From the NCBI GenBank assembly GCA_964655375.1, contig CAZZNB010000045.1:2015-66014 (forward strand): DNA of 64,000 nt, written 5' to 3'. Source of the DNA: an uncultured Candidatus Saccharibacteria bacterium. GTDB lineage: Bacteria > Patescibacteriota > Minisyncoccia > UBA6257 > HR35. The translations under genes were made by a program, and so were the position numbers. Of the stretch, positions 39,266-62,861 are shown piece after piece (positions within the stretch are counted from its first letter, which is position 1; each line of letters opens with the position of its first letter). Under the pieces are notes generated by a model that had not been told where the DNA came from, searched no databases, and saw only the letters and a list, made by a program, of their open reading frames with translations.

Positions 39266-39267
39266 TT

Positions 39268-39651: not shown

Positions 39652-39653
39652 TT

Positions 39654-39767: not shown

Positions 39768-39770
39768 TTT

Positions 39771-39977: not shown

Positions 39978-39984
39978 GTTATTT

Positions 39985-40056
39985 TCGGGGTGGCCGGATT
40001 CGAACCGGCAATCTCGTGGTCCCAAACCACGCGCCTTAACCATTAGGCCACACCCC
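39985..40056 (-). tRNA. tRNA-Pro (anticodon UGG)
   Basis: Cloverleaf: acceptor GGGGTGT/CACCCCG, anticodon stem CGTGG/CCACG with loop TTTGGGA, T-arm GCCGG-TTCGAAT-CCGGC. Confidence 0.85.
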
Positions 40057-40068
40057 GTAATTTTAAAA

Positions 40069-40141
40069 TGGACCCAGAGGGACTCGAACCCTCGGCCTCC
40101 GCCATGCCATAGCGGCGCTCTACCAACTGAGCTATGGGCCC
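40069..40141 (-). tRNA. tRNA-Ala (anticodon GGC)
   Basis: Cloverleaf with the G3:U70 Ala identity pair (acceptor GGGCCCA/TGGGTCC), anticodon loop ATGGCAT, T-arm GAGGG-TTCGAGT-CCCTC. Confidence 0.8.
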
Positions 40142-40157
40142 TTTAATATTAATTTTA

Positions 40158-41612: not shown

Positions 41613-41613
41613 T

Positions 41614-42852: not shown

Positions 42853-42854
42853 TT

Positions 42855-44561: not shown

Positions 44562-45235
44562 GGCTTAAAAACTTCTAAAAAATATAATTTATTTTTCATC
44601 GTTATATTAATTATTATAAAAAATATGCATAAAAAAACCCAATAATTTTTTAAAGAAATTTTTTCTGAAGATATACTAAGTTTTGATATTATTCTGATCA
44701 AATGCCACAAAAAAATTACCAAAAATCCAGATATTAATAAAAAGAAATTTAATGGAAAATCTATAAGAGAAGTTAATATAGGTACCATATAATATTCTTC
44801 TTTATAAAATAATGTCTCTTTAAATAATTTGTTAATTGTATAAATTATTAAAAATATAAAAAAAGATCCTATAAGACGCCAAAGTAATTGTTTGTAAAAA
44901 TGATGATAAGAGTAAGATAAAAAATAGGCGAAAGGTTGATAAGGAGGAAGAAGATATTTAGAAATAGGATGAGTTGCCCAAATTAAATATTGAAGATAAT
45001 TGATATAAAAAATATAAGCTAAGGAAAATATTATAAAAAATGAAAAAATGAGAAACCAATATTTTTTTTCTTTATTTCTAAAAAATATTAAAATAATAGA
45101 TGATAAAAGACTAATTATATAGATAAAATTTAAAATTATGAAATTAAATAAATTTTGCATAAAAAATATTATAAACCAATCCTTTTCTCTAATTGAAATA
45201 ACAGTTGTAATTTTTATTTTTTTATTAATTATCAC
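44558..45235 (-). CDS. Polytopic membrane protein in the pilus cluster (possible prepilin peptidase-like, uncertain)
   Basis: 225 aa with about 6 TM helices. Position is suggestive, but A24 peptidase motifs were not recognized. Confidence 0.25.
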   Translation of the reverse strand: MIINKKIKITTVISIREKDWFIIFFMQNLFNFIILNFIYIISLLSSIILIFFRNKEKKYWFLIFSFFIIFSLAYIFYINYLQYLIWATHPISKYLLPPYQPFAYFLSYSYHHFYKQLLWRLIGSFFIFLIIYTINKLFKETLFYKEEYYMVPILTSLIDFPLNFFLLISGFLVIFLWHLIRIISKLSISSEKISLKNYWVFLCIFFIIINITMKNKLYFLEVFKP

Positions 45236-45632
45236 AGTTTTTTTTAGTAGATTTTTAGAATTCTCAGCAGACTATGCTAATGTTTCTAAAGATGTAATTT
45301 CAATTAAAAAAACTTTAGAATTAGCTAGAGAAAAGTCTTTGATAAAAGAAGAATATACTAGTTGGGGAGTTTATTTTGAAAATTCTTCTTCTGCTTATTA
45401 TCTTTTTGCTGGTCCATCTTTTGCTTCATCAGTAAAAGTTTTTGTTAATTATTTAAGTGAAAATAATAAGTTTTTAAATCCACCTCCAAATTCTCATTTA
45501 GAAATTATTTTTATGCCTTCTACTGGTTATGCTACTAATGCAACAATTACAATATCTTCTTTGAATGAAAAAATAAAAGGTGATATAATAATTAATTCAG
45601 TCGGCACAATTAATACAAATATTTACAAATGA
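45138..45632 (+). CDS. Type IV pilin / pseudopilin-like protein
   Basis: The class III signal peptide QSFSLIEITVVIFIFLLI has the prepilin cleavage/methylation motif with Glu at +5. Confidence 0.65.
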   Translation: MKLNKFCIKNIINQSFSLIEITVVIFIFLLIITVFFSRFLEFSADYANVSKDVISIKKTLELAREKSLIKEEYTSWGVYFENSSSAYYLFAGPSFASSVKVFVNYLSENNKFLNPPPNSHLEIIFMPSTGYATNATITISSLNEKIKGDIIINSVGTINTNIYK

Positions 45633-46270
45633 ATATAAATCAAATTTTGCCAGCGATACTTTTAATAATTCTTCTTTTAGGAGGCGGATATTTATTATTC
45701 CAAAAAACTCCTATTAAATACACAGCTAATGTATTCACTAATTTGAATCTAGAAAACTTAAAAGGTTTTAATCCACCATTAGGAAATCCTGATGCTCCAG
45801 TAAAAATAATAGAATTTTCTGATGCTCAATGTTTTTATTGTAAAAAATTTTACATGGAATCTTTTAAGAAAATCAAAGACGAATATATAGATAAAGGATT
45901 AGCTGTTTTTTATTATAGAGATTTTGCCTTTTTAGGGCCTGAATCAATTCAAGCAAGTTTAGCTTCAAAATGCGCCAGAGAACAAGAGAAATTTTGGGAA
46001 TATATAGATATACTTTTCGAAAATCAATCAGTAGGATTCAACAAAGAAAACTTAATAAAATTTGCAGAAAGACTTAATTTAGATAAAGAAAAATTTGAAA
46101 AATGTATAAATGAGGGTAAATATATGGATGAAATTCAAGAAGATATAAAAGCAGCTCAAACTTTAGGAGTTAGAGGAACGCCTTATTTTATAATTAATAA
46201 TGATATAGTTGAAGGAGCATATCCATACGAATATATAAAACAAATTATAGAAAAATATATAAAAAAATGA
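45629..46270 (+). CDS. DsbA-like thiol:disulfide oxidoreductase
   Basis: 213 aa with an N-terminal TM/signal segment and the active site CFYC in a thioredoxin-fold context. Confidence 0.7.
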   Translation: MNINQILPAILLIILLLGGGYLLFQKTPIKYTANVFTNLNLENLKGFNPPLGNPDAPVKIIEFSDAQCFYCKKFYMESFKKIKDEYIDKGLAVFYYRDFAFLGPESIQASLASKCAREQEKFWEYIDILFENQSVGFNKENLIKFAERLNLDKEKFEKCINEGKYMDEIQEDIKAAQTLGVRGTPYFIINNDIVEGAYPYEYIKQIIEKYIKK

Positions 46271-46500
46271 AAAAAATAATAATTTATACAACAAGCTGGT
46301 GTCCGTTTTGTGATGCTGCTAAAGAATATTTTAAAAATAAAGGAGTAGAATATGAAGAAAAAAATGTTGAAAATGATATCCAGGCAAGAGAAGAAATGAT
46401 AGAAAAATCTGGTCAATTAGGTGTCCCTGTTATAGATATAGGCGGAAAGATAATTGTAGGTTTTTCACCTGAAGAAATTGAAGAAGCTTTAAAAGAATAA
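46267..46500 (+). CDS. Glutaredoxin-like protein (NrdH/YruB family)
   Basis: 77 aa with YTTSWCPFCDAAKEYF (CPFC active site). Confidence 0.75.
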   Translation: MKKIIIYTTSWCPFCDAAKEYFKNKGVEYEEKNVENDIQAREEMIEKSGQLGVPVIDIGGKIIVGFSPEEIEEALKE

Positions 46501-46504
46501 TTTT

Positions 46505-46789
46505 TTATTCTTCTGGTTCAATTCCTAATTCTTTTTTTAATTCCAATTCTCTTTTTCTATCTTCTAATGCTCTTTTAATTTTTTCAAGTTCTATAACAGT
46601 TTCTAACAGCCTTTCTTTAAATTTAAGAGTTGCATAAGCTAAATCTACTGCTTCTTCAAAGAAAATACCAACAATATCTTTCTTCACATCTTCAGGGAAC
46701 TTATCAAAATTTTCAATTAAAAAATTTCTAACATCTTCTTCACTCCCTTCTGCTAAAATTTTGAAAAATTCTTCATATATATTTTCCAT
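46505..46789 (-). CDS. Hypothetical acidic protein
   Basis: 94 aa, E-rich, no motif. Confidence 0.3.
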   Translation of the reverse strand: MENIYEEFFKILAEGSEEDVRNFLIENFDKFPEDVKKDIVGIFFEEAVDLAYATLKFKERLLETVIELEKIKRALEDRKRELELKKELGIEPEE

Positions 46790-46823
46790 ATTTATTTTTT
46801 AGTAATTAATATTCATTTGATAT

Positions 46824-47891
46824 TTATTTTGAATCCGCCCATCCTGCAACCATATTAATTAAAGCATCCAAAACCCCACCAAATTTATTGCCAAATTTAT
46901 TGCCTAATTTATTTCTCATGCGTGATTTAAAGCCAGATTTTAATTCGTTTTTTCGCTCCTCTTCGAGTTGTTCCCAATTAGTAACCTTTTGTTCCTGTAA
47001 AAATTCACTCCATTCCTCTTCTAATTCCTCCGGAGAATAGAAAGCTTCTTTGAAGCTTAGGCCTTGTCCTAAAGGTTTAAATTCATCCCATAAAGCTTTA
47101 TTTAAAATATCTATTCCTCCATTTGTAGTATATATTACATTAGCTATCATCTCTCCGACCTCCTTCAAATTATCATAGATTGTATTTAAATGTGTTTGTA
47201 CCTCTGTTATTTTATTTAATTCATCTACTCGCTTTTGGCTATATGTTCCTCCTTGCAAGAAATCCCAAATTTTTTGTAAAATATTTAATCTCCTTTTAAC
47301 AAGATTTGTAATCTCATCTTCTTTTACTTCTCCTTTTGCTATCCTTTCATATAGCCGACCTAACTCTGGTTCACTTATTCCATACCTTCTGCAAGCTTCT
47401 TTAAGTTGTTCATCAATATTTGAAAGTTGCCTTTCTGCTTCCTTTATTTGCTGAATTTTTTCCGCTAAACTGTCAAACCTATCTTTCCCTACAATATATA
47501 ACCTAGATAAATAAACTTCTAACAATTTCTTTGTATTTTCAATACCTAAAGTCCCAACCAATTTTTTAAACTTATTAGAACTTCCTACAATTATTTTTAT
47601 AGTTTCTGGAGTTAATAGACTTAATACTTCTTGAGACTTATCTATTGCTTCTTTAAGTAGTATTCTATAATTATTTAATTCTTCAAGTTCGTTTTCGCTA
47701 AAAGCTTCTCTTTTTAATAATTTTTCTATTAACTTTTGTTTATTATCTTTTTCTAAGGCTAAATTTAAAAGCTCCGAAAGTTTTGGATCTTTTAAAATCT
47801 CTGCTAAAGAAGGAGGAACAGCTTCAGGGCTTTGTTCATATTCTCCCCCCTTTTTTTGTTCTTGCGCCCTTCGAAATCTTTCTACTACCAT
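46824..47891 (-). CDS. Hypothetical coiled-coil protein
   Basis: 355 aa, no motif recognized. ATG at 47891 with no SD (host-like). Confidence 0.3.
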   Translation of the reverse strand: MVVERFRRAQEQKKGGEYEQSPEAVPPSLAEILKDPKLSELLNLALEKDNKQKLIEKLLKREAFSENELEELNNYRILLKEAIDKSQEVLSLLTPETIKIIVGSSNKFKKLVGTLGIENTKKLLEVYLSRLYIVGKDRFDSLAEKIQQIKEAERQLSNIDEQLKEACRRYGISEPELGRLYERIAKGEVKEDEITNLVKRRLNILQKIWDFLQGGTYSQKRVDELNKITEVQTHLNTIYDNLKEVGEMIANVIYTTNGGIDILNKALWDEFKPLGQGLSFKEAFYSPEELEEEWSEFLQEQKVTNWEQLEEERKNELKSGFKSRMRNKLGNKFGNKFGGVLDALINMVAGWADSK

Positions 47892-47945
47892 TAATTTAAT
47901 TTTAAGCTATATTTATTTCGATAGTCAAGTTTATAATTAATATTA

Positions 47946-48410
47946 ATGAAAAATAGAGTATTTCTTCAAAATCCGGGAATTTATTATCATTATCAAATAT
48001 TAGAAAGCTTTGAAGCTGGAATAGAGCTAAAAGGCTTTGAAGTCAAAGCCTTAAGAGAAGGGAAAGGAAGCTTAAAAGGAAGCTATGTTACTATAAAAGA
48101 TAATGAAGCTTATTTAGTAAATTTTAATATCCCTCCATACCAACCTAAAAATACACCAAAAGATTATGATGAAAATAGACCAAGAAAACTTTTATTAAAG
48201 AGAAAAGAAATAAATTATTTGATAGGAAAATTAAAAGAAAAGGGGTTAACATTAGTGCCAATCAAGGTTTATTCTAAAGGAAATCTTATTAAAATAGAAA
48301 TAGCTTTAGCAAAAGGTCTTAAAAAATATGAAAAAAGAGAAAAAATAAAAGAAAAAGAATTTAGAAGAGTAAAAGAAAGAGCAGAGAAAATAAAATATAG
48401 GGCTGGATAA
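47946..48410 (+). CDS. smpB: SsrA-binding protein SmpB
   Basis: 154 aa. GIELKGFEVKALREGKGSLKGSYV...RPRKLLLKRKEINYLIGK...GLTLVPIKVY...IEIALAKGLKKYEKRE matches the SmpB consensus. Confidence 0.9.
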   Translation: MKNRVFLQNPGIYYHYQILESFEAGIELKGFEVKALREGKGSLKGSYVTIKDNEAYLVNFNIPPYQPKNTPKDYDENRPRKLLLKRKEINYLIGKLKEKGLTLVPIKVYSKGNLIKIEIALAKGLKKYEKREKIKEKEFRRVKERAEKIKYRAG

Positions 48411-48442
48411 AAACCAGCCCCTTAATCCTAATAGTATATACT

Positions 48443-49351
48443 CTATAATTCTTTTAATCTAGATAAAATATGTTCTAATATTTCTTCGTGGGGCCCTGGT
48501 AAACTTATTCTAAACGGAGCTCCGCTTTTTAGTTCAAACATTTTCACTAAGTTAATTTCTTTTAATTTCGTTCCTATAATCGTAATTTCCTCATTGTTAT
48601 TTCCATATTTTTGTATGATTATCATGTCAAATCTTTTATATCCTAACATAAATAATCTTGTTATATCCACTTTTTTCTTTGGATCTAATTTTATATAACC
48701 AATTTTATATTTACCCCCAGCTATTAATTCTATATTTTCTGAAGCTTCTATTGTATTTCTTTCTATTTCTTCATATAATTTACCGTATTCCTCTAATAAC
48801 CTTCTCTCTTCACTATTATCTTCACTTTTATAACTTTTAACAAGATATCTAACTATTGTTCTCATTATGTTTTCTTTTAACCTTTCATCTTCACTTAAGA
48901 TTCCATATTTTAATGATCTATTTAAGAAAATAGATAAATCTGTTTCTTTATATTCTGTAGGTCTATCCGCAGCATTCGCTGCAGCGACCCACTCTTCTCT
49001 TACTATAAACCCATTATCTTTCATCAATTGGGGGCAGCTTGGGCTATCCCCAACTATAACTTTTTCTTCTCCTAGCCATTCTTGTAGATATATATATCCC
49101 TCATGATGGTCTATCCACAATCTTATTTTATCTTTATATCTTTCAATAAATTCTCTCGTCATATCTGGATTCCTATTATTTACTGCTATGTCGACAACAA
49201 AAATTTCCTCTATATTTGCAGGAATATTTATTTTATCTAACAAGAATGGCTGTGTAAAGATTATATTTCTTTCAGATATACCGAAGTTTATTGAAATTAT
49301 CGTTGCAGATATTACACCATCAATATCACCATGAGAAACCACAAACTTCAT
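48443..49351 (-). CDS. DHH-family phosphoesterase (NrnA-like), island gene
   Basis: DHH motif I VVSHGDIDG and motif III WIDHHEG. The true start is ATG at 49351, preceded by GGAGGTG 6 nt upstream. The track start at 49360 lies inside the SD. Confidence 0.7.
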   Translation of the reverse strand: MKFVVSHGDIDGVISATIISINFGISERNIIFTQPFLLDKINIPANIEEIFVVDIAVNNRNPDMTREFIERYKDKIRLWIDHHEGYIYLQEWLGEEKVIVGDSPSCPQLMKDNGFIVREEWVAAANAADRPTEYKETDLSIFLNRSLKYGILSEDERLKENIMRTIVRYLVKSYKSEDNSEERRLLEEYGKLYEEIERNTIEASENIELIAGGKYKIGYIKLDPKKKVDITRLFMLGYKRFDMIIIQKYGNNNEEITIIGTKLKEINLVKMFELKSGAPFRISLPGPHEEILEHILSRLKEL

Positions 49352-49479
49352 AAGTTTCACCTCCTTTTAGATTACTAATAAAATTTTAACATATTTTTAA
49401 AAACAAAATATTTTCAAAATTGTGTCAAATAAAAATGGCTGGGCAATTACCCCAGATTACCCAGCCAGAATTTACATTT

Positions 49480-50382
49480 TTATACTTTTTTATAGGTTTC
49501 TTTTATCTTAATAACCCTCTCTGTCTTAATTACTTCGAAAACTATATAGTATCTTTTTAATCTCTCTTCGTATCCTACATAATTTATTGATACTAAATTT
49601 TCGTTATATAAATTAGGTTCAATCTTCACCAAAAAATCTATAATTTCAGAATAATTTCTGAAACTAAAGTTATTTAGATTTCGCGAATATTCATATTTTG
49701 TACTACCTAACAAAACTCCTTTTAATCTTACTTTCCCTGTTTTTTTATACTCTACCAATCTTTCTAATGTTTGCTTGATATGAAATTCTACTCTAGCTTT
49801 AACTAACCTAGACTTCCCTATGATTTCATAAACTTTTCTGTTTTCATCTACAAAATATATTGCTTTATATTTACCTCTATTTGCAATTAATAAACAGGGA
49901 ATTTCACTATTTATTGAACTTATTTGAGATCTTGGGGGGAAGCTTAATATATGACTTACTAATTTTTGCTGATTCTCGTTCATCATTCTTATTTCCTCAT
50001 TCAACCTCTCAATGTTTATTTGCAATCTAATTTTTTCTTCGCTTAAAGATCTTATATTTTCTTCTAGGGATTTAACTTCCAAATCTCTACTTATAATATA
50101 TTGTTCAATTAAATATTCATCTTCGAATTCGTCCTTTATTCTAGCTACTGCTTCATTTATTATTTTTGCTAATTCTTCAGCAACTCTTTTATCTTCTGCT
50201 TTTACTATGTCAGGATGAATTACTGCTAATAAATAAGCTCTATGTAAATCTACAAGTCTCTTTAATAAGGCTTTATTTCTCTTCAATATTCCTATAAAGC
50301 TGGGGGTAAAGCCTAATATCTCATACGGGTTTTTACCACTTAATTTCTTTACTGTTTCAACAAGAACTATCTCCTTTTTCAT
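49480..50382 (-). CDS. J-domain (DnaJ-like) protein with coiled coil and unknown C-terminal domain, island gene
   Basis: J-domain NPYEILGF...LLKRLVDLHRAYLLAVIHPDIV with the HPD tripeptide. Start ATG at 50382 with GGAGGTG 6 nt upstream. Confidence 0.65.
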   Translation of the reverse strand: MKKEIVLVETVKKLSGKNPYEILGFTPSFIGILKRNKALLKRLVDLHRAYLLAVIHPDIVKAEDKRVAEELAKIINEAVARIKDEFEDEYLIEQYIISRDLEVKSLEENIRSLSEEKIRLQINIERLNEEIRMMNENQQKLVSHILSFPPRSQISSINSEIPCLLIANRGKYKAIYFVDENRKVYEIIGKSRLVKARVEFHIKQTLERLVEYKKTGKVRLKGVLLGSTKYEYSRNLNNFSFRNYSEIIDFLVKIEPNLYNENLVSINYVGYEERLKRYYIVFEVIKTERVIKIKETYKKV

Positions 50383-50494
50383 TTTAGTCACCTCCAAATT
50401 TTATTTTACAAATTTTTTAAAAAAAAATTAAAGCCCTAGCAAGGCTAGGGCCTATGTTTTTGTAGTTGATTTTCTTTTCATATATTTTCTATAC

Positions 50495-50971
50495 TTAACC
50501 TATTTGCTCTTCATAATCTAACCACATAAAAAATTCTTCTATATTAGCAAAATTTATTTCGAGATATCTTATAAATTTTAATATCTGTCTTTCGCTATCA
50601 AATCTATTAGTAATTATATAGTCTATTAATTTATAGAAGTTATATAAATCTCTATCGCATACATCCAGTATTCTTCTTACCGTATAAATTTGGCATTTTA
50701 AATATTCTGCTGCCTCTAGTATGCTATCTATTTCTTCGAAGGTATAACCATATTTTAATCTCCACTGAATTATCCAATAAATTGGTTTATTATAACGTTC
50801 CATCATATAAAGAACAGATTCCACATCTTCTCTTTTGAATTTACACTCTACCATTCTATCTATCATCCTTTTTGTAATTCTTAAATATGTACCATACCTC
50901 TGATTATATTCTTCTATTAACTTTTGATACCACTCTCTTCGTACCAGTGCTCTGCCTTTTTCTTCCCCCAC
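50495..50971 (-). CDS. Hypothetical protein, island gene (GTG start)
   Basis: 158 aa. GTG at 50971 is preceded by GGAGGTG at 7 nt. Followed by a hairpin terminator. Confidence 0.45.
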   Translation of the reverse strand: MGEEKGRALVRREWYQKLIEEYNQRYGTYLRITKRMIDRMVECKFKREDVESVLYMMERYNKPIYWIIQWRLKYGYTFEEIDSILEAAEYLKCQIYTVRRILDVCDRDLYNFYKLIDYIITNRFDSERQILKFIRYLEINFANIEEFFMWLDYEEQIG

Positions 50972-51059
50972 CTTTAGTCACCTCCTACTTAAATTTTAAA
51001 AATTTTTTAAAAAAAATTAAAGGCCGACAGAATCGGCCCTTTTCTTAAGAAAGATAAAT

Positions 51060-51467
51060 TTATAATCTCGATAAAATAAATCTTAAGAGTGCGTAAGAAT
51101 CTCTCATATAATTTACTATTCTTTTTAACTTTTCCCTTTCTTCTTGATTTAATATTTTCTTTTCAGATAATTTTTTATATTCGTCAGAATAAAGAGAATG
51201 TTCTAATAAAAATTTAATTCTTTGCCATATTATCTTTTTTTCGCTATATTTGTTTAACTTCCACTTTTCTAAAATACCACTTATTTTTAATTCGAACATA
51301 ACATTATCATATTTATCATACATCAATTCTATATTTATCTTTTCTTTACTTCTTAATTGCTCAAATTCAAACTTAATATCTTCTATTATATCTTTAATCA
51401 ATTTTTTTAGTCTTTCATTTATTTCACTTTCAATTTCTAACAACCTTTCTGTTTGTTCCAATATCAT
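51060..51467 (-). CDS. Hypothetical coiled-coil protein, island gene
   Basis: The real start is ATG at 51467 (MILEQTERLL), with GGAGGTG 6 nt upstream. The track ORF is over-extended. Followed by a terminator. Confidence 0.45.
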   Translation of the reverse strand: MILEQTERLLEIESEINERLKKLIKDIIEDIKFEFEQLRSKEKINIELMYDKYDNVMFELKISGILEKWKLNKYSEKKIIWQRIKFLLEHSLYSDEYKKLSEKKILNQEEREKLKRIVNYMRDSYALLRFILSRL

Positions 51468-51556
51468 TGTCTTCACCTCCTTATTTGTGCTAATTATATT
51501 ATAAAAGCATAAAAGCCAGGGCAAAAACCCTGGCCTTTTTTATTTTTTAGATATTC

Positions 51557-52177
51557 TCATAGCCTTTCCAGGTTCCCATCACTATATAATAATATTCCAT
51601 CATTTAAATAATATTTAGGCCCCCCATTTTTATTTGTACCCACTACTATATACACCTTAGAATTCTTCTCTAGACCATTAACTAACAATATACCTAAGGA
51701 TTTATACAACAAATCTTCAGGATTTTCAGGCTTTTTATCTTTAAATTCTATTAATGTATTCCATGCTAACTTAAATATATCTACCTGAGGTTCGTATAAA
51801 CAAAATAATATTTCTTTAGAAATATTTCTTGACTTAGCTGTGTATACTAATTCTACAATCTTTATCATCCATGCTAAAGTAACCTCTTTTAGCTTTTCTT
51901 TATATTTTTCTATTTCGCTTATAGATACTCTAATTTTCTCCGGTAATCCCGGAGGAAATATAAATACTATTTGATATCCTAATTCATGTACTCTATTGGG
52001 AGGCAATATGTTTCCTTGCTCATCGCAAGGCACCACCTCCCAATTATTAGGACCAATTATATATATTACCTTATCAAATATGATCTTCTTTCGTTCTTCT
52101 TTAGCAGGCTCCTCTGTTGGAGCCTGTTCTTCTGTTAATTTTTTGTATTCTCTAAAGAGATCCTCTAGTTGTTCCAT
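51557..52177 (-). CDS. Hypothetical protein, island gene
   Basis: The real start is ATG at 52177 (MEQLEDL), with GGAGGTG 7 nt upstream. 206 aa. Followed by a terminator. Confidence 0.45.
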   Translation of the reverse strand: MEQLEDLFREYKKLTEEQAPTEEPAKEERKKIIFDKVIYIIGPNNWEVVPCDEQGNILPPNRVHELGYQIVFIFPPGLPEKIRVSISEIEKYKEKLKEVTLAWMIKIVELVYTAKSRNISKEILFCLYEPQVDIFKLAWNTLIEFKDKKPENPEDLLYKSLGILLVNGLEKNSKVYIVVGTNKNGGPKYYLNDGILLYSDGNLERL

Positions 52178-52460
52178 AAAAACCACCTCCATCTAATTTT
52201 AGACTGCCAATTAAATTATAAAATAAGTTTATTTTGTCAAATAAAAATCTAATTCGCCCAAAATTTAAAATATAATCAAACATACTTTTTGTCAATTTAT
52301 ATAGCATTTGATTTTTATTTAAAAAATATTATTTAATACCTAAATAATTAAAATCTTTCTAATAAAATTGTTAATTCCTACCCCAATTATTTCTAGTAAA
52401 ACAAAAAGTACTGATTTAACTATTTAATTATTTATGTATCTTGGCTGATTTAATGTAGTA

Positions 52461-52488
52461 TTGACTTTTAAAAATTATTTAATATAAT
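52461..52488 (+). promoter_or_regulatory. Consensus sigma70-type promoter P1 (TTGACT-16-TATAAT)
   Basis: -35 at 52461-52466, -10 at 52483-52488, then SD GGAGGTG at 52495-52501 and ATG at 52509. Confidence 0.55.
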
Positions 52489-52508
52489 TAACTTGGAGGT
52501 GGTCTAAA

Positions 52509-52751
52509 ATGAGAAGAAGAATGATAGATACTATTATATTAACTATAATAACAATATCACCAATAGTAGTTATACTTATAATCACAAAAACAGATCCATT
52601 TTTGGAATATATAGCAAAAGTAAACCCAGAAATTTGGATGAATATAATGGCACCTATAGGAATATTGTTTGGTATGATACTTACTTTTGCATATATCACC
52701 TTATTGTTAATATATTCTGAGTATAGGCATAGAAATACGAATAGAAGATAG
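52509..52751 (+). CDS. Small 2-TM membrane protein, island gene
   Basis: 80 aa. Has its own promoter, a perfect SD and a terminator (hairpin gcccgcgataaaagcgggc at 52813-52831 plus a T-run). Confidence 0.5.
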   Translation: MRRRMIDTIILTIITISPIVVILIITKTDPFLEYIAKVNPEIWMNIMAPIGILFGMILTFAYITLLLIYSEYRHRNTNRR

Positions 52752-52812
52752 AAATCAATAAGACAAAATGAGAAATAAGCGGAATATATAAAAATTTTTA
52801 GAAAAAACATTA

Positions 52813-52850
52813 GCCCGCGATAAAAGCGGGCAATATTTTTTTATATTTTT
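52813..52850 (+). terminator. Rho-independent terminator
   Basis: GC hairpin gcccgcg-ataaaa-gcgggc followed by a T-rich tail. Confidence 0.6.
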
Positions 52851-52995
52851 TAATTTAAATTAATAAAAGAAATAAATATCTTTTCCAAACAAGCCAATCT
52901 TATTTACCGCATTCAATATTCCTATATTTTGATGATGAAAATGTTTATAGAATAGACTAAAAATAGCTAAAAGCTCTTTAATATTTTTTACCCTA

Positions 52996-53024
52996 TTGAC
53001 TTTTTTCAAAAAAATTATTATACT
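52996..53024 (+). promoter_or_regulatory. Consensus sigma70-type promoter P2 (TTGACT-17-TATACT)
   Basis: -35 at 52996-53001, -10 at 53019-53024, SD GGAGGTG at 53032-53038. Confidence 0.5.
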
Positions 53025-53044
53025 AATAACTGGAGGTGACTACA

Positions 53045-53305
53045 ATGAAAAAACACAAGATAATGTTAAATATAGCAATTAGTATAATAATGTTAAATAT
53101 ATTTCTGTTGGTATATGATACTTTCGTAAATACTAACTTTCTTCAATATATATACTATAAAGAAAATACATTAATACACACAAATATAGAAAGAACCTTG
53201 AAAATAATAAGTATACTGATGATAATAAATAGCCTTGGACTGTTTTTAATAATTTATATTCACATACGAGATAGAATAATAAAAATCATTAATAAAATCT
53301 TTTAA
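53045..53305 (+). CDS. Small 2-TM membrane protein, island gene
   Basis: ATG at 53045 (MKKHKIML), 6 nt after GGAGGTG. 86 aa. Followed by a hairpin terminator (ccccgcag...ctgcgggg, 53327-53355). Confidence 0.5.
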   Translation: MKKHKIMLNIAISIIMLNIFLLVYDTFVNTNFLQYIYYKENTLIHTNIERTLKIISILMIINSLGLFLIIYIHIRDRIIKIINKIF

Positions 53306-53432
53306 AAAATAAAACCAATACTAAAAGCCCCGCAGAAAATAAATAACTGCGGGGCAAAATTTTATTACAAAAATAGTATAATTGAAACAAAATATAGTCA
53401 AAAATATACGAAAAATATATATTTTTTACATC

Positions 53433-53460
53433 TTGACAAATAAAAATAAGTGATTATAAT
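53433..53460 (+). promoter_or_regulatory. Perfect consensus promoter P3 (TTGACA-16-TATAAT) driving the GC-rich cassette
   Basis: -35 at 53433-53438, -10 at 53455-53460. Confidence 0.55.
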
Positions 53461-53575
53461 TATTATTGGATACACTTAAAGTAGTATAAGACGTAAACTC
53501 CCCCGGGAGGGGGTTACAGGGAGCTGAGGGACTCCCTGTAGCTCGCCCGGGGAATAGAAAAGGAGGTGAAAGAAG

Positions 53576-53959
53576 ATGGATGAGCTGAAATTGAAACCTC
53601 ACAAACAACCCCAACCTCAACAACAACAGGAAGAGCAACAACCCCAACCTCAACCCCAACCCCCTACCAAGAAGGTCATTTTGCTTTTTGGTAGGGGGAC
53701 CGTCCAGTACGATCAGAGTAAGTACACTTTGATCGTACTGACGGGGATCCAACCCCACCCCCTGCACCAACCGGAGGAGTGGCTTGAGTTTGTCAAGTCG
53801 ATCCTCCGGGCCTTCTCCATCGCGAGGGTGGAAGAAGTGGTTATCGCGGTGGAGAGGGCACAGGTCCCCACGTTGATCTCTCTCACGCGGAACAATAAAA
53901 AGTTCCGCGTGGCACCCGCCGTCGTTAAGGACGGAAAGGTGTTCTACCCCGTAGTTTAA
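53576..53959 (+). CDS. GC-rich hypothetical protein with PQ-repeat N-terminus
   Basis: 127 aa: MDELKLKPHKQPQPQQQQEEQQPQPQPQPPTKK.... Perfect SD aaaGGAGGTGaaagaagATG. Codon usage is completely unlike the rest of the window. Confidence 0.45.
   Translation: MDELKLKPHKQPQPQQQQEEQQPQPQPQPPTKKVILLFGRGTVQYDQSKYTLIVLTGIQPHPLHQPEEWLEFVKSILRAFSIARVEEVVIAVERAQVPTLISLTRNNKKFRVAPAVVKDGKVFYPVV
53705..53740 (+). repeat. 11-bp perfect inverted repeat (cagtacgatca ... tgatcgtactg) with 14-bp spacer inside the GC-rich ORF
   Basis: Read directly. It is the reason both strands encode YDQS.YTLIVL. Confidence 0.6.
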
Positions 53960-54086
53960 GTCCTAACTTCCCAACCCTAACCACCCCACACCGCCCCCCG
54001 GCCCGACCCTCAGGGTTTCCCGTACAGGGGGGCTATTTAATTTTATGGAGAAATTTTTAATAGAAAAATTAAAAATTTTTAAGGAC

Positions 54087-54114
54087 TTGACAAATTAAAA
54101 TAATTTGTTATAAA
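54087..54114 (+). promoter_or_regulatory. Consensus promoter P4 (TTGACA-16-TATAAA)
   Basis: -35 at 54087-54092, -10 at 54109-54114, SD GGAGGTG at 54134-54140. Confidence 0.5.
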
Positions 54115-54146
54115 AATTATTAGCAAACTTGAAGGAGGTGCCTGAA

Positions 54147-54383
54147 ATGGAAAAATGTTTGGTCAAGAGAGAAAGAAAGAAGAAAAATAATAGAAGAGAA
54201 ATAAGAATTTTTTGTAGAAATTGTGAGGTAGAAATTTTTAGATACATAAAATATAAAGATACAGCAATTTACGATATAGAAGATTTGAGAATAGTAGGTG
54301 TTGATTTAGAAGAAGATAAAAAAATTTTAGAAATAGAATGTTGGAAATGTAAAAAAATATATAAAATTCAAGTAGAACCATAA
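54147..54383 (+). CDS. Small zinc-ribbon protein (CxxC...CxxC), island gene
   Basis: ATG at 54147 (MEKCLVKRERKKK...), 6 nt after the SD. Cys pairs CRNCEVE and CWKCKK. Followed by the terminator acgcaccc-tttt-gggtgcgt at 54413-54447. Confidence 0.5.
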   Translation: MEKCLVKRERKKKNNRREIRIFCRNCEVEIFRYIKYKDTAIYDIEDLRIVGVDLEEDKKILEIECWKCKKIYKIQVEP

Positions 54384-54412
54384 TAAATAAAATTTTTTCA
54401 AAAATAAACACA

Positions 54413-54447
54413 CACGCACCCTTTTGGGTGCGTTATTCATTTTTTGA
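54413..54447 (+). terminator. Rho-independent terminator
   Basis: Hairpin cacgcaccc/gggtgcgtg followed by tattcattttttg. Confidence 0.6.
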
Positions 54448-54850
54448 AATACATTGTCTAGTCTTATGACATATAAAAATAATAATTATTATATTTATTT
54501 TTAGACAAGGAAAAATAGCTTAAATACTAAATTGTTTTACAAAATTTAAAATTTTTGCGAAAATCTGTTTAGCTAAATTTTACCTATAGAAAACTATATC
54601 TCTCTTTGAAAAACTTAGAGCTTTAGAATTGATAAATCTTATAGATTAATTTTTAAATAATAAATAAGAAAAATTTTTAATTATTCATAGATATTATGAT
54701 TGTACATATAAAAAGATTCGTTTATTAATTTAAAAGATACTATGAAAATTAAGAAATAAATTTCTTCCTAATTAATACAAATTTTGAAATTTTAATTGCC
54801 TTAAAAATAATTACATTTAATAAAAAACTCAAATATTTTAATTTGATTTT

Positions 54851-54872
54851 CTATATTTCTATAGAAATATAG
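54851..54872. repeat. 22-bp perfect palindrome ctatatttctatagaaatatag in a 750-bp gene-free AT-rich stretch
   Basis: The sequence equals its own reverse complement. A related motif, cctatagaaaactatatc, lies at about 54578. Confidence 0.6.
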
Positions 54873-55148
54873 AAATTGATATTTTTAAATTTTTTACAAA
54901 TGAAGATGCTTTATCTATTTGGAGCTTTTATTTCAATAGATTAAAAAATGTAAATTAAAAAACTACCGTTGTTTATGCGTATATCTGTTGATTATTTTGA
55001 TTAAAATAAAAGTCTTTTTTATTTGCTTTTTAAAACCTTTAGAATACTTTATAAAATTATCGAAGGAATATTTATTTTTAAGAAAATTTGAAATTATTTT
55101 TTATCATTTAAAATTTAATCAGAAAGCTAAAAGGAGGTGAAAAAGTTG

Positions 55149-55478
55149 ATGGAGGTGATGAACGAGCTATTATTAGAAGAAATTAAATTAATGTATAAAA
55201 ATTCTAAAGATGCATTAATAAAGCTTCATGATTTATTATGTAATGTTCGTTTAAGAGTTAAAGAAGTTGAGTTAAATGTAAGATTTTATGAAGAAAAGAA
55301 AACTTTTGTTATTATGCCAAAATTATCAAGCTTTGAAGAAAAAATTGATTATTTAATTAAAAACTATAATAAGCTATTTAGTAATGAAAATTTAGAAAAA
55401 GAAGATTTGGAATTTTACTTAGAATTATTAAATGAAGTTATAGAAACTTTAGAAAGGACCATAAAAAAACTCAGCTAA
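55149..55478 (+). CDS. Hypothetical coiled-coil protein, island gene
   Basis: ATG at 55149, 9 nt after GGAGGTG (55133-55139). 109 aa. Followed by the hairpin terminator cggagctgg-tatcat-ccagctccg at 55488-55511. Confidence 0.45.
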   Translation: MEVMNELLLEEIKLMYKNSKDALIKLHDLLCNVRLRVKEVELNVRFYEEKKTFVIMPKLSSFEEKIDYLIKNYNKLFSNENLEKEDLEFYLELLNEVIETLERTIKKLS

Positions 55479-55678
55479 AAAGTAAATCGGAGCTGGTATC
55501 ATCCAGCTCCGTTAATTATTTTCTAATTGTAAGATAGAGGAAAGAAAAAGAGAAGAAGAAAGAATAAAAGAAGAACTTTCATTATGGTATGATTATTAAA
55601 ATTTAGATTAAAGATAGAATAAGGGGAGGCATTTAACCTCCCCTATTATAATTTATCGCTTAATTTTCCGATATGATG

Positions 55679-55825
55679 TTACGGAGGAATATCTGGTCTA
55701 ATTGTATGCGTTCTCTGTACCGGGCAAACTCTTCTAGGGTCCCACTCAGGATGTTTATCAGGATCTATTTTGGGTGTTGGCTTAGGCTTTACTGGTGTTT
55801 TCGGCCTTGTCTTTTCTCTTTGCAT
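55679..55825 (-). CDS. Small Lys/Pro-rich basic protein (48 aa), absent from the ORF track
   Basis: Manual translation gives MQREKTRPKTPVKPKPTPKIDPDKHPEWDPRRVCPVQRTHTIRPDIPP. ATG at 55825 overlaps the TGA of the upstream gene (tgATG). GGAGGTG lies 7 nt upstream. Followed by a terminator at 55621-55645. The plus-strand ORF 55673-55888 in the track is probably its antisense artefact. Confidence 0.45.
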   Translation of the reverse strand: MQREKTRPKTPVKPKPTPKIDPDKHPEWDPRRVCPVQRTHTIRPDIPP

Positions 55826-56214
55826 CACACTTCACCTCCTCCTTCAAAGAGTCTTTTGAGCCTTTTCATCTCATTTTCCTCAGTATAATTCTTATCTTTT
55901 ATAGTTAATACTTTTTTAGCTTCAAAAATCAACTCTGCTCCTACCATATTTCTATTAATATCTACATCTTCAAAGCTTGAAACTGTTAATATTGCTAACA
56001 ATAATTCTTCTCTAATCGCAATTGTTACCATTTCTTTATCTAAGGAGAAAATATTTTCTTTTTCAGAAATATTAGGTATTTCTTTTAATATTTCTTCTAT
56101 AAGCTCATACCCTTCCTCTTTCTCTATAAGTCCGTTTTGTATAGCCAACAATATTCTTGTCCATAAATATCTTACAGATGCAAAGCTAAGACTAAGCTTA
56201 ACATTTTCAAACAT
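55825..56214 (-). CDS. Hypothetical protein, island operon gene 2
   Basis: ATG at 56214 (MFENVKLS), preceded by GGGAGGTG at 6 nt. The track start at 56223 is a GTG inside the SD. Confidence 0.45.
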   Translation of the reverse strand: MFENVKLSLSFASVRYLWTRILLAIQNGLIEKEEGYELIEEILKEIPNISEKENIFSLDKEMVTIAIREELLLAILTVSSFEDVDINRNMVGAELIFEAKKVLTIKDKNYTEENEMKRLKRLFEGGGEV

Positions 56215-57070
56215 CACCCTCACCTCCCTTAAGGGTTTCCATTTTTTCTATAAAGTTCATTATATGATGTTTTGGCATTGGATTTATATTTCCATTCAGT
56301 AATACTGGAATTTCTAATCCTCCTAGCCTTTCTACTACACTTTCTCCTAATGGCAATCTATTGCATTGATTTAAATCGATTAAAACTTTTTCTCCTGTTT
56401 TTATTCCATAATCATATAACAAAAATCTTCTCCACCAAGCTATAAATATTTTCATTTCATCAGATAGTTTTGAAGGAGTATAATTTACATGTGGTTTATA
56501 TAAACCTTGATTTCTATGATATTCTTCTATTGACTTGATTAAAGATCGAGCAAATTCTATGCTTGGTTTTTCTACTATATAAGGATAGCCAATAACATCT
56601 ATTAATTCTCTGCCATATCTATAACTTAAAGTTAATAAATTTATAAATTCCTCTGCGACAGGTCTTAACAAGATATCTGCTAATGGCTTTTGTAAATAAT
56701 ATAAATCTTTAATATCATTGAAATATTCAACTATTTCTTTTATACCCCAATATCCTTTTCTTAATATATCTACAAATTCTACTTCTTTTATTTTAAAATT
56801 TGGCTGAATATAACTTTTAATCCAAAAATGAGTACTTTCTGTATCTCTATTCCTATAAAGAGAAGCTATTATTACTCTCTCATATCTTGAATTTCCTAAT
56901 ACATATATGTTTTCATAGAAATTATATATTTCAGGCACTTCCTCTATTTTTTTACCAAATTCTGTTATATACTTTCCATAATTTTCATAATATAGAGATA
57001 GACTATAGTACAATCTTTGCTCTTCAGCTATACTCAACTTATCACAGAAATGAAATAACATAATTTTCAC
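56207..57070 (-). CDS. Hypothetical protein, island operon gene 1
   Basis: 287 aa. ATG at 57070 with GGAGGTG 7 nt upstream (cataattttcacctcc on the plus strand). Confidence 0.45.
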   Translation of the reverse strand: MKIMLFHFCDKLSIAEEQRLYYSLSLYYENYGKYITEFGKKIEEVPEIYNFYENIYVLGNSRYERVIIASLYRNRDTESTHFWIKSYIQPNFKIKEVEFVDILRKGYWGIKEIVEYFNDIKDLYYLQKPLADILLRPVAEEFINLLTLSYRYGRELIDVIGYPYIVEKPSIEFARSLIKSIEEYHRNQGLYKPHVNYTPSKLSDEMKIFIAWWRRFLLYDYGIKTGEKVLIDLNQCNRLPLGESVVERLGGLEIPVLLNGNINPMPKHHIMNFIEKMETLKGGEGDV

Positions 57071-57150
57071 CTCCTTGAAGGTTTCTATTTATATTATAAT
57101 ATAAAGATCAGATTGTGAATTAATTTATTAAGAATTTTTAAATTATAGCA

Positions 57151-57178
57151 TTGACTTAAAATGTATACATTTTATAAT
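57151..57178 (+). promoter_or_regulatory. Consensus promoter (TTGACT-16-TATAAT) about 300 nt upstream of the next gene
   Basis: -35 at 57151-57156, -10 at 57173-57178. No SD-led ORF lies immediately downstream. Confidence 0.4.
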
Positions 57179-57483: not shown

Positions 57484-58524
57484 ATGGAAGGATTATATCC
57501 CTCCCCTTTTCCAGAACAACAACCAGAATTGCCGAAAACTAATAGTGGGTATTATGAAACTATTGAAAGATATTTAAAAGGGGTGCTTAATAAATTAAAA
57601 AGCGAATCTTCAGGGCATAGAGGCAAATTTCTTTTGATTATGGGTGAAATTAAACCTTCAAGTGCTATTGATATTGAGATAAAAACTCAAGATGATTTCG
57701 AAAAATATATTGGTGCTTTTTCAAAAGCAGAAGAAGGTTCAGGTTTAGAAAAATATTTAGAATCTCTAAGAAGAGAATGGAGCCAACAAACATTATATGC
57801 TCAAAAACGATATAAACACACTCAAAGAACAATAGAATCTCACTTTTTAGGACAAATTAAAGGAAAATCAGTTGAAAAAATTATCGCTAACTCTTTAATT
57901 AGTCTTAACCCTAAACTTCAAAATATAAAATTTATCGGAGTTCCATTAATAGACGATTTAATAGGCGCTGGAGATATTTATATGACTATTCAATTAGAAA
58001 ATGAATTAATTATTTTTGCTATAGATATAACTTCTTCTATAGAAAAAAGTAGTGTCTTATATAAATTATCTAAAGAAATGGGGAATTATCCTTTCTCTTT
58101 ATCTTCTATCAAAAATAATTTAAATATATACAGAATAGAATTAGCATTAAATGACAAAGAAATTCAATTAAATTTAGATGAAATTAAAGAAATAGTAACC
58201 AGGGGAACAAAATTATTGCAAGAAGAATTAAGAAAATATAACATCAGTCCTGAGGGTATAATACAAAATATTCAAAGATATGAAAATGATCCTAGATTCA
58301 GTCAAGAAATAGACTTAGAAACATTTATTAACTTCTTTGTTGAAAATACAATACTTCGAAATTATAAAGATTTCTTGACAGGTTTATATTGCCTTTATTC
58401 AATAAAATTTATATTAGATTATTCATTTAGAAAATTATCTAAAGATGATAAAGAAATAATAAAAAAATGTTCAGAAGTTATTGAGGAACAATTATCTTTG
58501 CCTCAAAGTTCTACCTTTCATTAG
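57484..58524 (+). CDS. Hypothetical protein
   Basis: 346 aa, no SD (host-like), no motif recognized. Confidence 0.35.
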   Translation: MEGLYPSPFPEQQPELPKTNSGYYETIERYLKGVLNKLKSESSGHRGKFLLIMGEIKPSSAIDIEIKTQDDFEKYIGAFSKAEEGSGLEKYLESLRREWSQQTLYAQKRYKHTQRTIESHFLGQIKGKSVEKIIANSLISLNPKLQNIKFIGVPLIDDLIGAGDIYMTIQLENELIIFAIDITSSIEKSSVLYKLSKEMGNYPFSLSSIKNNLNIYRIELALNDKEIQLNLDEIKEIVTRGTKLLQEELRKYNISPEGIIQNIQRYENDPRFSQEIDLETFINFFVENTILRNYKDFLTGLYCLYSIKFILDYSFRKLSKDDKEIIKKCSEVIEEQLSLPQSSTFH

Positions 58525-58573: not shown

Positions 58574-58920
58574 GGGGGTGATAAATGGAATTCGAGGAGG
58601 AAAAAAGGTAAAAGGGGCTGGTGGCTTAGCCCGCCTTAAGGGCTAAAAATAAATGCCAACCAATCCTTTGCCTATGCTTTAAGCTAAGCATAGGGCTTTA
58701 CAGGAATTCAGTGCTAGGCTGGTCCTGTAGGGTGACGGAATCCTAGCTAGAAGTTAAAAGGTTAGAGAGGAGCCTTTTAACTTCGAAATTAAATATTCCT
58801 CTCAGGCCTTAGTCGTTTTGCCGGTTTTTGAGACTAAGGTTCAAATTTAAAAACCGGCTATACCAGTAGAACCTTTTACCTTTTTTTCTTCGACAGGGGT
58901 TCGATTCCCCTCACCTCCAC
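58574..58920 (+). ncRNA. ssrA: tmRNA (SsrA)
   Basis: The 5' end GGGGGUGAUAAAUGGAAUUCGAGGAGG parallels E. coli GGGGCUGAUUCUGGAUUCGACGGG. The 3' end GGGGUUCGAUUCCCCUCACCUCCAC is a tRNA-like T-arm plus acceptor that pairs with the 5' GGGGGUG. The internal reading frame GCC AAC CAA UCC UUU GCC UAU GCU UUA AGC UAA gives a tentative tag ANQSFAYALS. Confidence 0.75.
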
Positions 58921-59014
58921 AATTATTGATTTAAAATCTTAAAAATAAAACTTAAAAATAAAAGACATTAACTTATTTAAGATATTTTGAGATAAATGAG
59001 AAAATTATTTAATT

Positions 59015-62749: not shown

Positions 62750-62803
62750 AAACCCGGAGCGGGTGATTTAGGGCGAGGGGGTCTGAGGGTCATCCCGCTC
62801 CGG
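62750..62803 (-). terminator. Probable rho-independent terminator downstream of nth (long GC stem cccggagcggg/cccgctccggg followed by U-run on the minus strand)
   Basis: 11-bp GC stem with a 31-nt loop. aaaaaa on the plus strand corresponds to UUUUUU after the stem in the minus-strand transcript. Confidence 0.45.
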
Positions 62804-62861
62804 GTTAGAGTGTTAGAGTAAGGAGGGGTTGTCTAGTTTTCTATTATTTATTATACCATTA

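Follow-up and report, generated by a model that had tools for sequence, protein, structure and literature searches.

Expression signals of the smpB–ssrA island

The 64-kb stretch of DNA analysed here (the window) comes from an uncultured bacterium of the Patescibacteria, or candidate phyla radiation (CPR), whose closest species-level genomes are Paceibacteria/Minisyncoccia (SmpB identity, 64–86%); contigs with an identical SmpB come from hot-spring metagenomes, judging from record names such as GBSCSSed77C. Between the smpB stop codon (48410) and the tmRNA gene ssrA (58574), the window carries a 10.1-kb insertion. This island consists of 11 transcription units (A–E and the operon M-L-K on the minus strand, with F–J between them on the plus strand) and differs from the host DNA in three expression signals, namely an extended Shine–Dalgarno (SD) sequence, -35/-10 promoters and terminators. 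The SD is present at 13/13 island genes versus 0/61 host genes of the window (Fisher P = 1e-14).

The core of this SD is the heptamer GGAGGTG, which occurs in 20 exact copies in the 64 kb, compared with 1.22 ± 1.06 (maximum, 4) in shuffled sequences. Fifteen of the 20 copies lie within 49358–57074 (binomial P = 8e-10), and 13 of these 15 sit 5–9 nt before the ATG or GTG that opens the open reading frames (ORFs) of genes A–M. The first-pass annotation had described the motif before the same 13 genes, and both its gene coordinates and its placing of several starts just inside the ORFs are borne out; the longest-ORF starts in the island fall within the SD itself and would therefore mislead gene callers. 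The two remaining island copies lie inside gene E (52034–40) and in codons 2–4 of gene J (55151–57). Five copies are located elsewhere in the window, none of them ahead of a start; one belongs to the 3' acceptor end of tmRNA (58912–18).

In its extended form, the island consensus is AAGGAGGTGA, the exact complement of the canonical 16S rRNA tail; the 3' tail that fits the SD model reads CACCUCCUU(U). Duplex energies were computed with this canonical tail (core CCUCC), the host's own 16S rRNA gene being outside the window, and on that assumption the SD:anti-SD duplexes of the island genes reach -15 to -18 kcal/mol. At 77°C, a duplex of 10–11 nt would retain about -6.4 kcal/mol, versus -2.6 kcal/mol for the 5-nt core, which fits the extended form of the motif. 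No small-subunit rRNA was found in the window or in the loci of close relatives, and a 3'-end pattern search over all loci matched only a locus of a distant Patescibacteria metagenome-assembled genome (MAG), L087 (CAZMCG010000014.1, 15613–16366, minus strand). There the 16S 3' end reads ...GUGAAUCAAUUAUACU, with CAAUUAU in place of CACCUCC, so the anti-SD has been lost in that CPR lineage; an SD is present in 0/13 genes of the L087 locus.

The host genes of the window differ sharply, as had been noticed in the first-pass annotation. Their mean SD:anti-SD duplex energy is -2.2 kcal/mol (n = 61), compared with -2.5 kcal/mol at random positions, and even genes of classically high expression (rpsM, rpsK, rpsD, infA, recA, ssb and rpsF) are without an SD. 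A TATAAT-like -10 box ends 6–8 nt before the ATG of 13 host genes, against about one gene per distance elsewhere. As this arrangement is a signature of leaderless mRNAs, many host genes look leaderless, whereas those inside operons have A-rich upstream sequence, again without an SD. Strong SDs are rare in the wider group as well: at all 80 Paceibacteria smpB neighbourhoods compared, they were found for 0–25% of genes under a lenient criterion. Apparent SD-led host genes in the nearest outgroups resolved into internal ATGs or tRNA overlaps.

Several island units have a full sigma-70-type -35/-10 promoter whose -10 box lies 15–44 nt from the start, never 4–12 nt, and nearly every island gene is then followed by a GC-rich hairpin and a T-run. 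Consensus scans, on which all promoter and terminator calls are based, gave 24 terminator-like sites in the island versus 4.2 expected, and 28 versus 4.6 in the island of the sister lineage L090. No such excess is seen in host DNA, with 5 intrinsic terminators versus 6.6 expected at 28000–47900 of the window and 1 versus 3.5 in the L090 flank.

The overlapping genes of the operon M-L-K (55679–57061, minus strand; terminator at 55622–55644) separate the SD from the promoter. Gene M (284 aa, 56207–57061) has its SD at 57068–74, gene L (129 aa, 55825–56214) at 56221–27 and gene K (48 aa, 55679–55825) at 55833–39; the two latter SDs fall within the GGE-coding ends of the preceding genes, M (…KGGEGDV) and L (…FEGGGEV), respectively. 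This indicates that the motif is tied to start codons and not to promoters, and a role of GGAGGTG as a promoter element was rejected since the internal operon starts also carry it. From their arrangement, the three genes appear to be translationally coupled. The L stop overlaps the K start (TGATG) at 55825–55839, directly behind a GGAGGTGA. The L-like ORF of L099 does not end there but continues, past a conserved junction (EGG(D/E)E), with a basic tail which faintly resembles the start of the PEWDPRR motif of K (PQPEWFKK), and the corresponding tail in L100 is without a clear K-like motif; L and K may thus be separate or fused depending on the lineage.

Genes and proteins of the island

At the left border, smpB (47946..48410, plus strand; Pfam SmpB) has a leaderless-type TATAAT-8 nt-ATG start without an SD, and a bidirectional terminator hairpin detected by the terminator scan (48399..48421) is common to smpB and gene A. 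Five minus-strand units follow: gene A (302 aa, 48443..49351, SD at 49358–49364), gene B (300 aa, 49480..50382, SD at 50389–50395, terminator at 49436–49467), gene C (158 aa with a GTG start, 50495..50971, SD at 50979–50985, terminator at 50431–50453), gene D (135 aa, 51060..51467, SD at 51474–51480, terminator at 51019–51041), which has orthologues, and gene E (206 aa, 51557..52177, SD at 52184–52190, terminator at 51511–51538), whose orthologues carry AGGAGGGATG instead. No function was assigned to C, D or E. The 53-nt region upstream of C is 85% identical to that of B.

On the plus strand, gene F (52509..52751) encodes an 80-aa protein with two hydrophobic segments and a basic tail, downstream of a TTGACT-16-TATAAT promoter (52461–52488) and an SD (52495–52501) and upstream of a terminator (52813–52831); gene G (53045..53305; promoter, 52996–53024; SD, 53032–53038) similarly encodes 86 aa with two hydrophobic segments. 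The gene H cassette (53433..54034) starts with a perfect TTGACA-16-TATAAT promoter (53433–53460) and contains an SD (53562–53568), a coding sequence (CDS) for a PQ-rich protein of 127 aa with 53% GC (53576–53959), a C-rich 3' untranslated region (UTR) and a terminator (54014–54034). Its GC-rich leader of about 100 nt (53462–53561) holds a conserved stem-loop of about 52 nt that ends 10 nt before the SD, and 8 of the 21 predicted pairs of this stem show compensatory changes among six sequences. In the related locus L098, the 3' UTR of the H-like gene has three CCCACCTCC repeats, which are anti-SD mimics.

Gene I (54147..54383, SD at 54134–54140, terminator at 54414–54433) encodes a 78-aa CxxC...CxxC zinc-ribbon-like protein, and gene J (55149..55478, SD at 55133–55139, terminator at 55488–55511) a 109-aa protein to which no function was assigned and whose orthologues are 57–62% identical. 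Between them is a non-coding stretch of 750 nt with about 21% GC (54384..55130), which has no ORF, is 93% identical in the strain L003 and holds short inverted repeats, e.g., at 54831–54892; it could be an origin-like or regulatory region. An Rfam scan of the island, this stretch included, gave no family at gathering score.

To the right of the M-L-K operon, an orphan strong promoter (TTGACT-16-TATAAT, 57151..57178, plus strand) has neither SD nor ORF behind it. At the same site in a sister species, a promoter, an SD, a 64-aa CxxC gene and a terminator are found, and the orphan promoter is thus probably the remnant of an emptied cassette, the alternative being a non-coding transcript. Gene N (57484..58524, plus strand) encodes 346 aa with no assigned function and has orthologues that are 47–56% identical. 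Even though it lies within the smpB–ssrA insertion, between M and ssrA, it has host-type leaderless signals (TATAAT-N6-ATG) and no SD, as the first-pass annotation had stated for this gene and for smpB. The right flank is a complete ssrA (58574..58922, plus strand; Rfam RF00023, 119.5 bits, model positions 1–374).

No island protein has a significant match in Pfam, PHROGs, NCBIfam or PADLOC, and PDB sequence searches with A, B and N gave no matches; the best PADLOC score, DrmC for protein L (E = 0.005, 14.5 bits), is not significant. Protein A has 80 homologues, 71–77% identical in hot-spring relatives and 27–41% across the CPR, and although A itself is below the threshold, PF01368 (DHH) is matched by 20/28 aligned homologues (best E = 5e-8). 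In these 28 sequences, the DHH motifs D9, D11, D54, D81-H82-H83 and D129 are invariant or nearly so. On these grounds A is classified as a divergent DHH phosphoesterase with no assigned substrate, which upholds, through its homologues, the label given at first pass; a search of PDB with the A-family profile gave one weak match, to a DHH-type PAP phosphatase (E = 0.004). An A homologue in L095 (38% identical) adjoins terminase and ParB-methylase genes, and at L095:8700–11500 three genes near this homologue share an upstream element, AAARTCGGAGYCGCGGCCTTAGCYAAWAAGGAG, ending in an SD.

Protein B falls into 5 clusters, all within this clade. Its NPYEILG and HPD motifs are invariant, and the J-domain label of the first-pass annotation rests on these motifs only: there is no Pfam DnaJ match, and alignment to the J-domain of Escherichia coli DnaJ by hhalign gives a probability of 1.9%. 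The AlphaFold model of B (pLDDT 57) is too poor for a fold search; in it, helices flank the HPD motif, and the apparent layout is a helical N-terminus with the J-domain-like NPYEILG...HPD, a coiled coil and an alpha/beta C-terminal domain. For C there is a weak hint of an excisionase-type helix-turn-helix (HTH) in NCBIfam TIGR01764 (E = 0.025, below cutoff), and for I there are weak Pfam Zn-ribbon matches (E = 0.003–0.005). Homologues of H occur in islands of this clade only. The predicted structure of M is confident and has no structural neighbour or known fold. A relationship between N and Up355, an orphan gene that likewise flanks the island, as paralogues was rejected on comparison.

Elsewhere in the window, pilus and secretion genes are encoded as well, and a tRNA-Ile gene with anticodon TAT is present at 28030–28102 (minus strand), likewise in L013 and L018. 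Bacteria normally read AUA by a modified CAT anticodon, and TAT is unusual.

Conservation of the island and of its SDs in relatives

Several comparisons place the island as an insertion relative to outgroups. In L011 (SmpB 83% identical), L015 (80%), L018 and L037, tmRNA starts 25–75 nt after smpB, and relatives with ssrA directly after smpB have SmpB identities of 64–83%; the window thus carries an insertion of about 10 kb, and the empty site that had been suggested as a check exists. At least five sister lineages (L090/L104, L105, L107, L096/L098 and L109) share the genes, their order and the site of insertion; in addition, L010 has an A homologue after smpB, and the strain L003 has a variant of the island. 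Taken together, these distributions indicate that the insertion is old and lineage-specific.

The SDs are preserved along with the genes. In the sister lineages, AAGGAGGTGA or AAGGAGGG(A) stands before every island gene (18 in L090) with unchanged spacing, and across 5–6 lineages the motif is conserved amid variable leader sequence; neither the N orthologue nor the host genes at the flanks have an SD in these lineages. The first-pass annotation had read the island as acquired horizontally from an SD-using source. That the SDs are a relic of recent import from such a donor is not supported, in view of the synteny in at least five lineages, a divergence similar to that of the flanking genes Up355 and N, the preservation of the SDs and a host-like composition. 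GC of the island genes is 0.20–0.31, compared with 0.27 ± 0.04 for the host, and GC at third codon positions (GC3) is only slightly higher. The composition and codon-usage check that had been proposed therefore yields a deviation only for gene H (GC, 0.53; GC3, 0.66; codon-usage z = -16) and partly for K (GC, 0.44), indicating that H, but not the island as a whole, is a recent import.

Divergence of the proteins is high. Between lineages, RecA and SmpB are 93–94% identical and the island proteins 47–83%, and the flanking orphan genes N and Up355 (46–56%) have diverged as well, so that the whole locus evolves fast.

Even close strains differ in gene content. In L003, whose backbone is 98% identical, B, C and F are missing, and an unrelated gene of 132 aa stands exactly in place of the CDS of H, the exchange beginning directly behind the SD and ending at the stop codon (homology of the two was rejected; BLASTP E = 3.4). 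Gene I is replaced in L003 by a different CxxC protein of 83 aa. The leaders and 3' regions around both swaps stay conserved, and the stem-loop in the H leader is retained in L003 despite the unrelated CDS. This pattern suggests that the conserved regulatory flanks act as recombination sites for CDS exchange. In L091, a duplication is seen in the variable middle of the island.

The operon M-L-K is also found far from this locus. An exhaustive HMMER search with M gave ten representative families at 28–62% identity, nine of which are at 28–37%, and M homologues occur in phage-like contigs (phmmer E = 1e-17 to 6e-22). In L100 (WPAA01086796.1, a 34-kb contig) and L101 (SRR16588181_17805, 30 kb), the M homologue ends a co-directional array that includes PHROG tail fibre and endolysin matches; it is preceded by a gene with an exonuclease-type PHROG match, to the Cas4-like family phrog_1706 in L100 and to the exonuclease family phrog_284 in L101. 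Behind it come genes resembling L (phmmer E = 2e-7) and K (3e-9), with the PEWDPRRxCPxQR motif kept in K. These contexts bear out the phage-like link that had been proposed for the island. A block of 4–5 genes around M-L-K has duplex energies of -10 to -18 kcal/mol in L100 and L101, versus -6.4 kcal/mol or weaker for the 12–17 others. The SD-led genes of the phage-like contigs are thus M-L-K and neighbours such as exonucleases, whereas the structural genes are SD-less, which also speaks against an SD-using donor.

The same pattern recurs on a chromosome. L102 is a 29% GC CPR chromosome in which an M-L pair lies between topA and a type II secretion system ATPase gene, about 6 kb from dnaN/dnaA; this pair alone is SD-led (-12.3 kcal/mol each), compared with -5.7 kcal/mol or weaker for 18 neighbours. 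L099 and L110 show the same pattern. The SD is kept across M homologues that are only 28–36% identical and, to judge from these loci, travels with the M-L-K module through at least four independent SD-less contexts. Confinement of the SD to the module in four SD-less contexts implies that it is an intrinsic property of the module.

Other SD-led cassettes, built like those of the island, were observed at different loci of sister genomes. One at L107:375–1860 (minus strand) has a TTGACT-17-TATAAT promoter, a leader hairpin, a gene for a 60-aa peptide with a Cys-rich C-terminus, a further hairpin and a gene for a 367-aa protein; by its motifs (CxxxCxxC), this protein looks radical-SAM/SPASM-like, and the cassette resembles a cluster for a ribosomally synthesized and post-translationally modified peptide (RiPP). 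The neighbouring NUDIX gene is leaderless. Another, at L105:1–330 (minus strand), several kb beyond recA, consists of a lipoprotein-like gene (MLKFSLRFLLLLSILAIVGCGGGG...) that has a hairpin upstream as well as a TATAAT box.

A candidate small RNA is located in the core part of the window at 62750–62836 (minus strand), between endonuclease-III-like and RNase H genes, and also at L104:2485–2590, L107:4124–4240 and about 10270–10366 of L098. It has its own TATAAT box, a 12-bp closing stem around a variable, C-rich and G-poor loop, and a U-tail. Its 5' stretch, ACAACCCCUCCUUACUCU, is single-stranded and an anti-SD mimic, with ACCCCUCCUUAC complementary to the SD motif. All 18 nt of this stretch are identical in the four loci, which represent three lineages, and no Rfam match was obtained. 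Predicted duplexes of this RNA with island start regions average -14.1 kcal/mol, versus -5.2 kcal/mol for host genes; it could be a class-wide repressor of SD-led genes.

Origin of the island and possible roles of the SD

The island does not fit the classes to which such loci are usually referred: it does not qualify as a prophage, an ssrA-integrating element, a composition-defined island or a known defence system. As an SD, GGAGGTG has the expected complementarity (with the canonical tail assumed), spacing (5–10 nt, internal starts included) and conservation. The reading held here with moderate confidence is that the island represents a fixed, fast-evolving array of moron-like cassettes from a phage/mobile gene pool, in which the SD is selected and module-intrinsic and is no foreign relic. 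Kinship with phages is established for M-L-K only, from which a phage origin of the whole island would be an extension. The roles most likely for such genes, as judged from the DHH phosphoesterase, the small zinc-ribbon proteins and the holin-like proteins with two transmembrane segments, would be phage-derived accessory functions in nucleic-acid handling or host/phage interaction.

Several observations weigh against this reading. Phage-like contexts yielded homologues for only 3/13 genes, and transfer could have gone either way; scans of IMG/VR with M, with the M homologues P0102 and P0103, with N and with the A family gave no relatives; and an A homologue in L093 lies in an ordinary chromosomal context without an SD. 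No integrase, transposase or structural phage gene was found in the island by Pfam, PHROGs, NCBIfam or PADLOC, in agreement with the first-pass annotation, and no direct repeats (att-type) at its borders. The anti-SD of the clade is assumed, and the distant L087 has lost it. The window covers about 10% of the genome. Moreover, the divergence of the island proteins, which is similar to that of the fast-evolving flanks Up355 and N, and the host-like GC and codon use fit a purely vertical, highly expressed locus equally well.

Such a locus, in which SD, promoter and terminator would simply mark the units that the clade expresses very highly, with no mobile history, is an unlikely explanation. It accommodates the same site, order and signals in at least five lineages, the host-like composition, the lack of mobility genes and border repeats, and the chromosomal homologues of A across the CPR. 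Presence of the same genes, locus and signals in orthologous genomes had been named beforehand as what a vertically inherited locus would show, and this is indeed found; the next relatives, however, have no island at the site, so that the agreement is partial. High expression as the common cause is at odds with the SD-less rpsM, rpsK, rpsD, infA, recA, ssb and rpsF, and a purely vertical history with the SD-led M-L-K in phage-like contigs, with the strain-level CDS turnover that includes a gene of 53% GC, and with the evolution of the island proteins, much faster than that of RecA and SmpB. Slightly less likely still is that the island serves defence, anti-defence or host interaction, with swappable immunity or counter-immunity factors and a DHH enzyme degrading a nucleotide signal. 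Rapid protein divergence beside conserved housekeeping genes, non-homologous replacement of cassettes between strains, many small proteins of unassigned function, the DHH phosphoesterase itself and the kinship of M-L-K to phage-like DNA would all suit that function. Yet searches of PADLOC, Pfam, NCBIfam and PHROGs matched none of the proteins, the model of M is without a structural neighbour, and the core genes A–E and K–M are conserved and not patchy; being about function only, this explanation also leaves the SD contrast unaccounted for. The defence, anti-defence or satellite function raised at first pass is accordingly not supported, the evidence pointing neither way.

A still-active integrated element (cryptic prophage, satellite or integrative plasmid) targeting the smpB–ssrA spacer appears improbable. 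The insertion beside ssrA relative to outgroups and the phage-shared module are in its favour, the 750-nt AT-rich non-coding stretch might be its replication origin, and the excisionase-type HTH hint in C would also be in keeping with it. However, no gene was recognised for an integrase or recombinase, for replication or packaging, or for a structural protein, and neither Pfam nor PHROG gave a capsid, terminase, portal, tail or integrase match in the island. Border repeats are lacking, the island lies 5' of an intact ssrA with the tmRNA model matched once and no 3' segment duplicated, and the proteins have diverged about as much as Up355 and N, with no other insertion site seen. Integration at ssrA as a hot spot, which the first-pass annotation had suggested, is disfavoured by the same position and the same lack of repeats. 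Least probable of all is that GGAGGTG is not read by host ribosomes, either because the anti-SD has been lost or because the motif is a protein operator, a small-RNA target or a signal for the ribosomes of recipient cells. The MAG without an anti-SD (L087), the core-encoded C-rich RNA candidate with ACCCCUCCUUAC complementary to the motif, and the pilus and secretion genes of the window can be cited for it. The fixed distance of 5–9 nt to starts, which extends to the promoter-less M/L and L/K junctions, is nevertheless the signature of an SD, and the motif, which complements the canonical 16S tail exactly, is kept in four independent contexts.

If the array of moron-like cassettes is accepted, the cassettes would have been drawn from a CPR phage/mobile pool, with SD, full promoter and terminator belonging to the cassette. 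The SD would pair with the 3' tail of 16S rRNA and recruit 30S subunits, so that translation of the cassette mRNAs would start by another route than that of core genes, which is leaderless or A-rich. Selection would maintain the SD in the cassettes, which is why it would not be a fading relic. From the signals, the SD would function on host ribosomes and the island genes would be expressed at high levels or conditionally; the benefit might lie in very high expression, in conditional translation or, as with early phage genes, in precedence over host mRNAs.

A more far-reaching and rather doubtful possibility is that this lineage has two initiation channels, with core genes leaderless or SD-independent and SD:anti-SD pairing reserved almost wholly for phage-derived, accessory cassettes. 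The anti-SD might then be a 'private line' for early phage modules, the island, and the RiPP-like and lipoprotein cassettes; the class might be switched as a whole by ribosome heterogeneity (bS21-type occlusion) or by the C-rich RNA at 62750–62836; and the SD-bearing leaders and terminators might double as recombination flanks for CDS swaps.

Phage 'morons' (Hendrix and co-workers) are reportedly single genes with their own promoter and terminator that are inserted in prophages. The island genes resemble them as autonomous promoter–ORF–terminator units that vary between close strains and in some cases have relatives in phage contexts, but here no prophage backbone surrounds them, smpB and ssrA being the flanks, the array is contiguous and stable over species-level divergence, and the hallmark is a translation signal. 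Classical ssrA islands arise by integrase-mediated insertion in the 3' end of ssrA. They share with this island the position of accessory DNA beside ssrA and its absence from relatives, whereas the present one lies between smpB and a complete ssrA, 5' of the latter, with no integrase and no duplicated 3' segment. In genomes with leaderless transcription, non-first operon genes usually use SDs. The -10 box 6–8 nt before the start is a feature that the host shares with such genomes (GeneMarkS-2 group C; Lomsadze et al., 2018, PMC6028130), but internal host genes are without an SD and SDs are limited to accessory cassettes.

The nearest parallel, by analogy, is the Bacteroidia. Their genes are without an SD, and the anti-SD, though still present, is sequestered; rpsU alone has kept an extended SD, which ribosomes lacking bS21 use (Jha et al., 2021, PMC7797042; McNutt et al., 2023, PMC9976891). 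In both cases, a few genes of an SD-poor lineage have a conserved extended SD, which, being conserved, is taken to be functional, and an anti-SD kept for a special class of mRNAs is implied. The differences are that the SD class here is an accessory island of 13–18 genes together with phage-shared modules, and not a ribosomal-protein gene, and that this is a CPR bacterium with leaderless mRNAs, whereas the sequestration in the Bacteroidia is by bS21/bS18/bS6; rpsU was not found in the window or in the relatives' loci examined. Phages also encode the ribosomal protein bS21 (Chen et al., 2022, PMC9723584). Phages of SD-poor hosts manipulating the choice of mRNA by the ribosome would be a common theme; the link is hypothetical, and no bS21 gene is seen here.

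A literature search found no report of an SD-defined class of accessory genes in an SD-less or leaderless bacterium, which is weak evidence of absence. If the two-channel interpretation is true, gene class (core versus accessory or phage-derived) would be readable from the initiation signal across a bacterial clade, and SD:anti-SD pairing could persist in an SD-less lineage mainly as a channel for mobile genes. The SD would also be a simple marker of accessory genes in CPR genomes in which composition-based island detection fails because of host-like GC, and the locus would be a natural model in which to ask what makes SD-less lineages retain the anti-SD, or lose it. Finally, about 20 conserved protein families without an assigned function come into view in these uncultured symbionts; they are probably highly expressed, given their strong expression signals, and one of them is predicted with confidence to have a novel fold.

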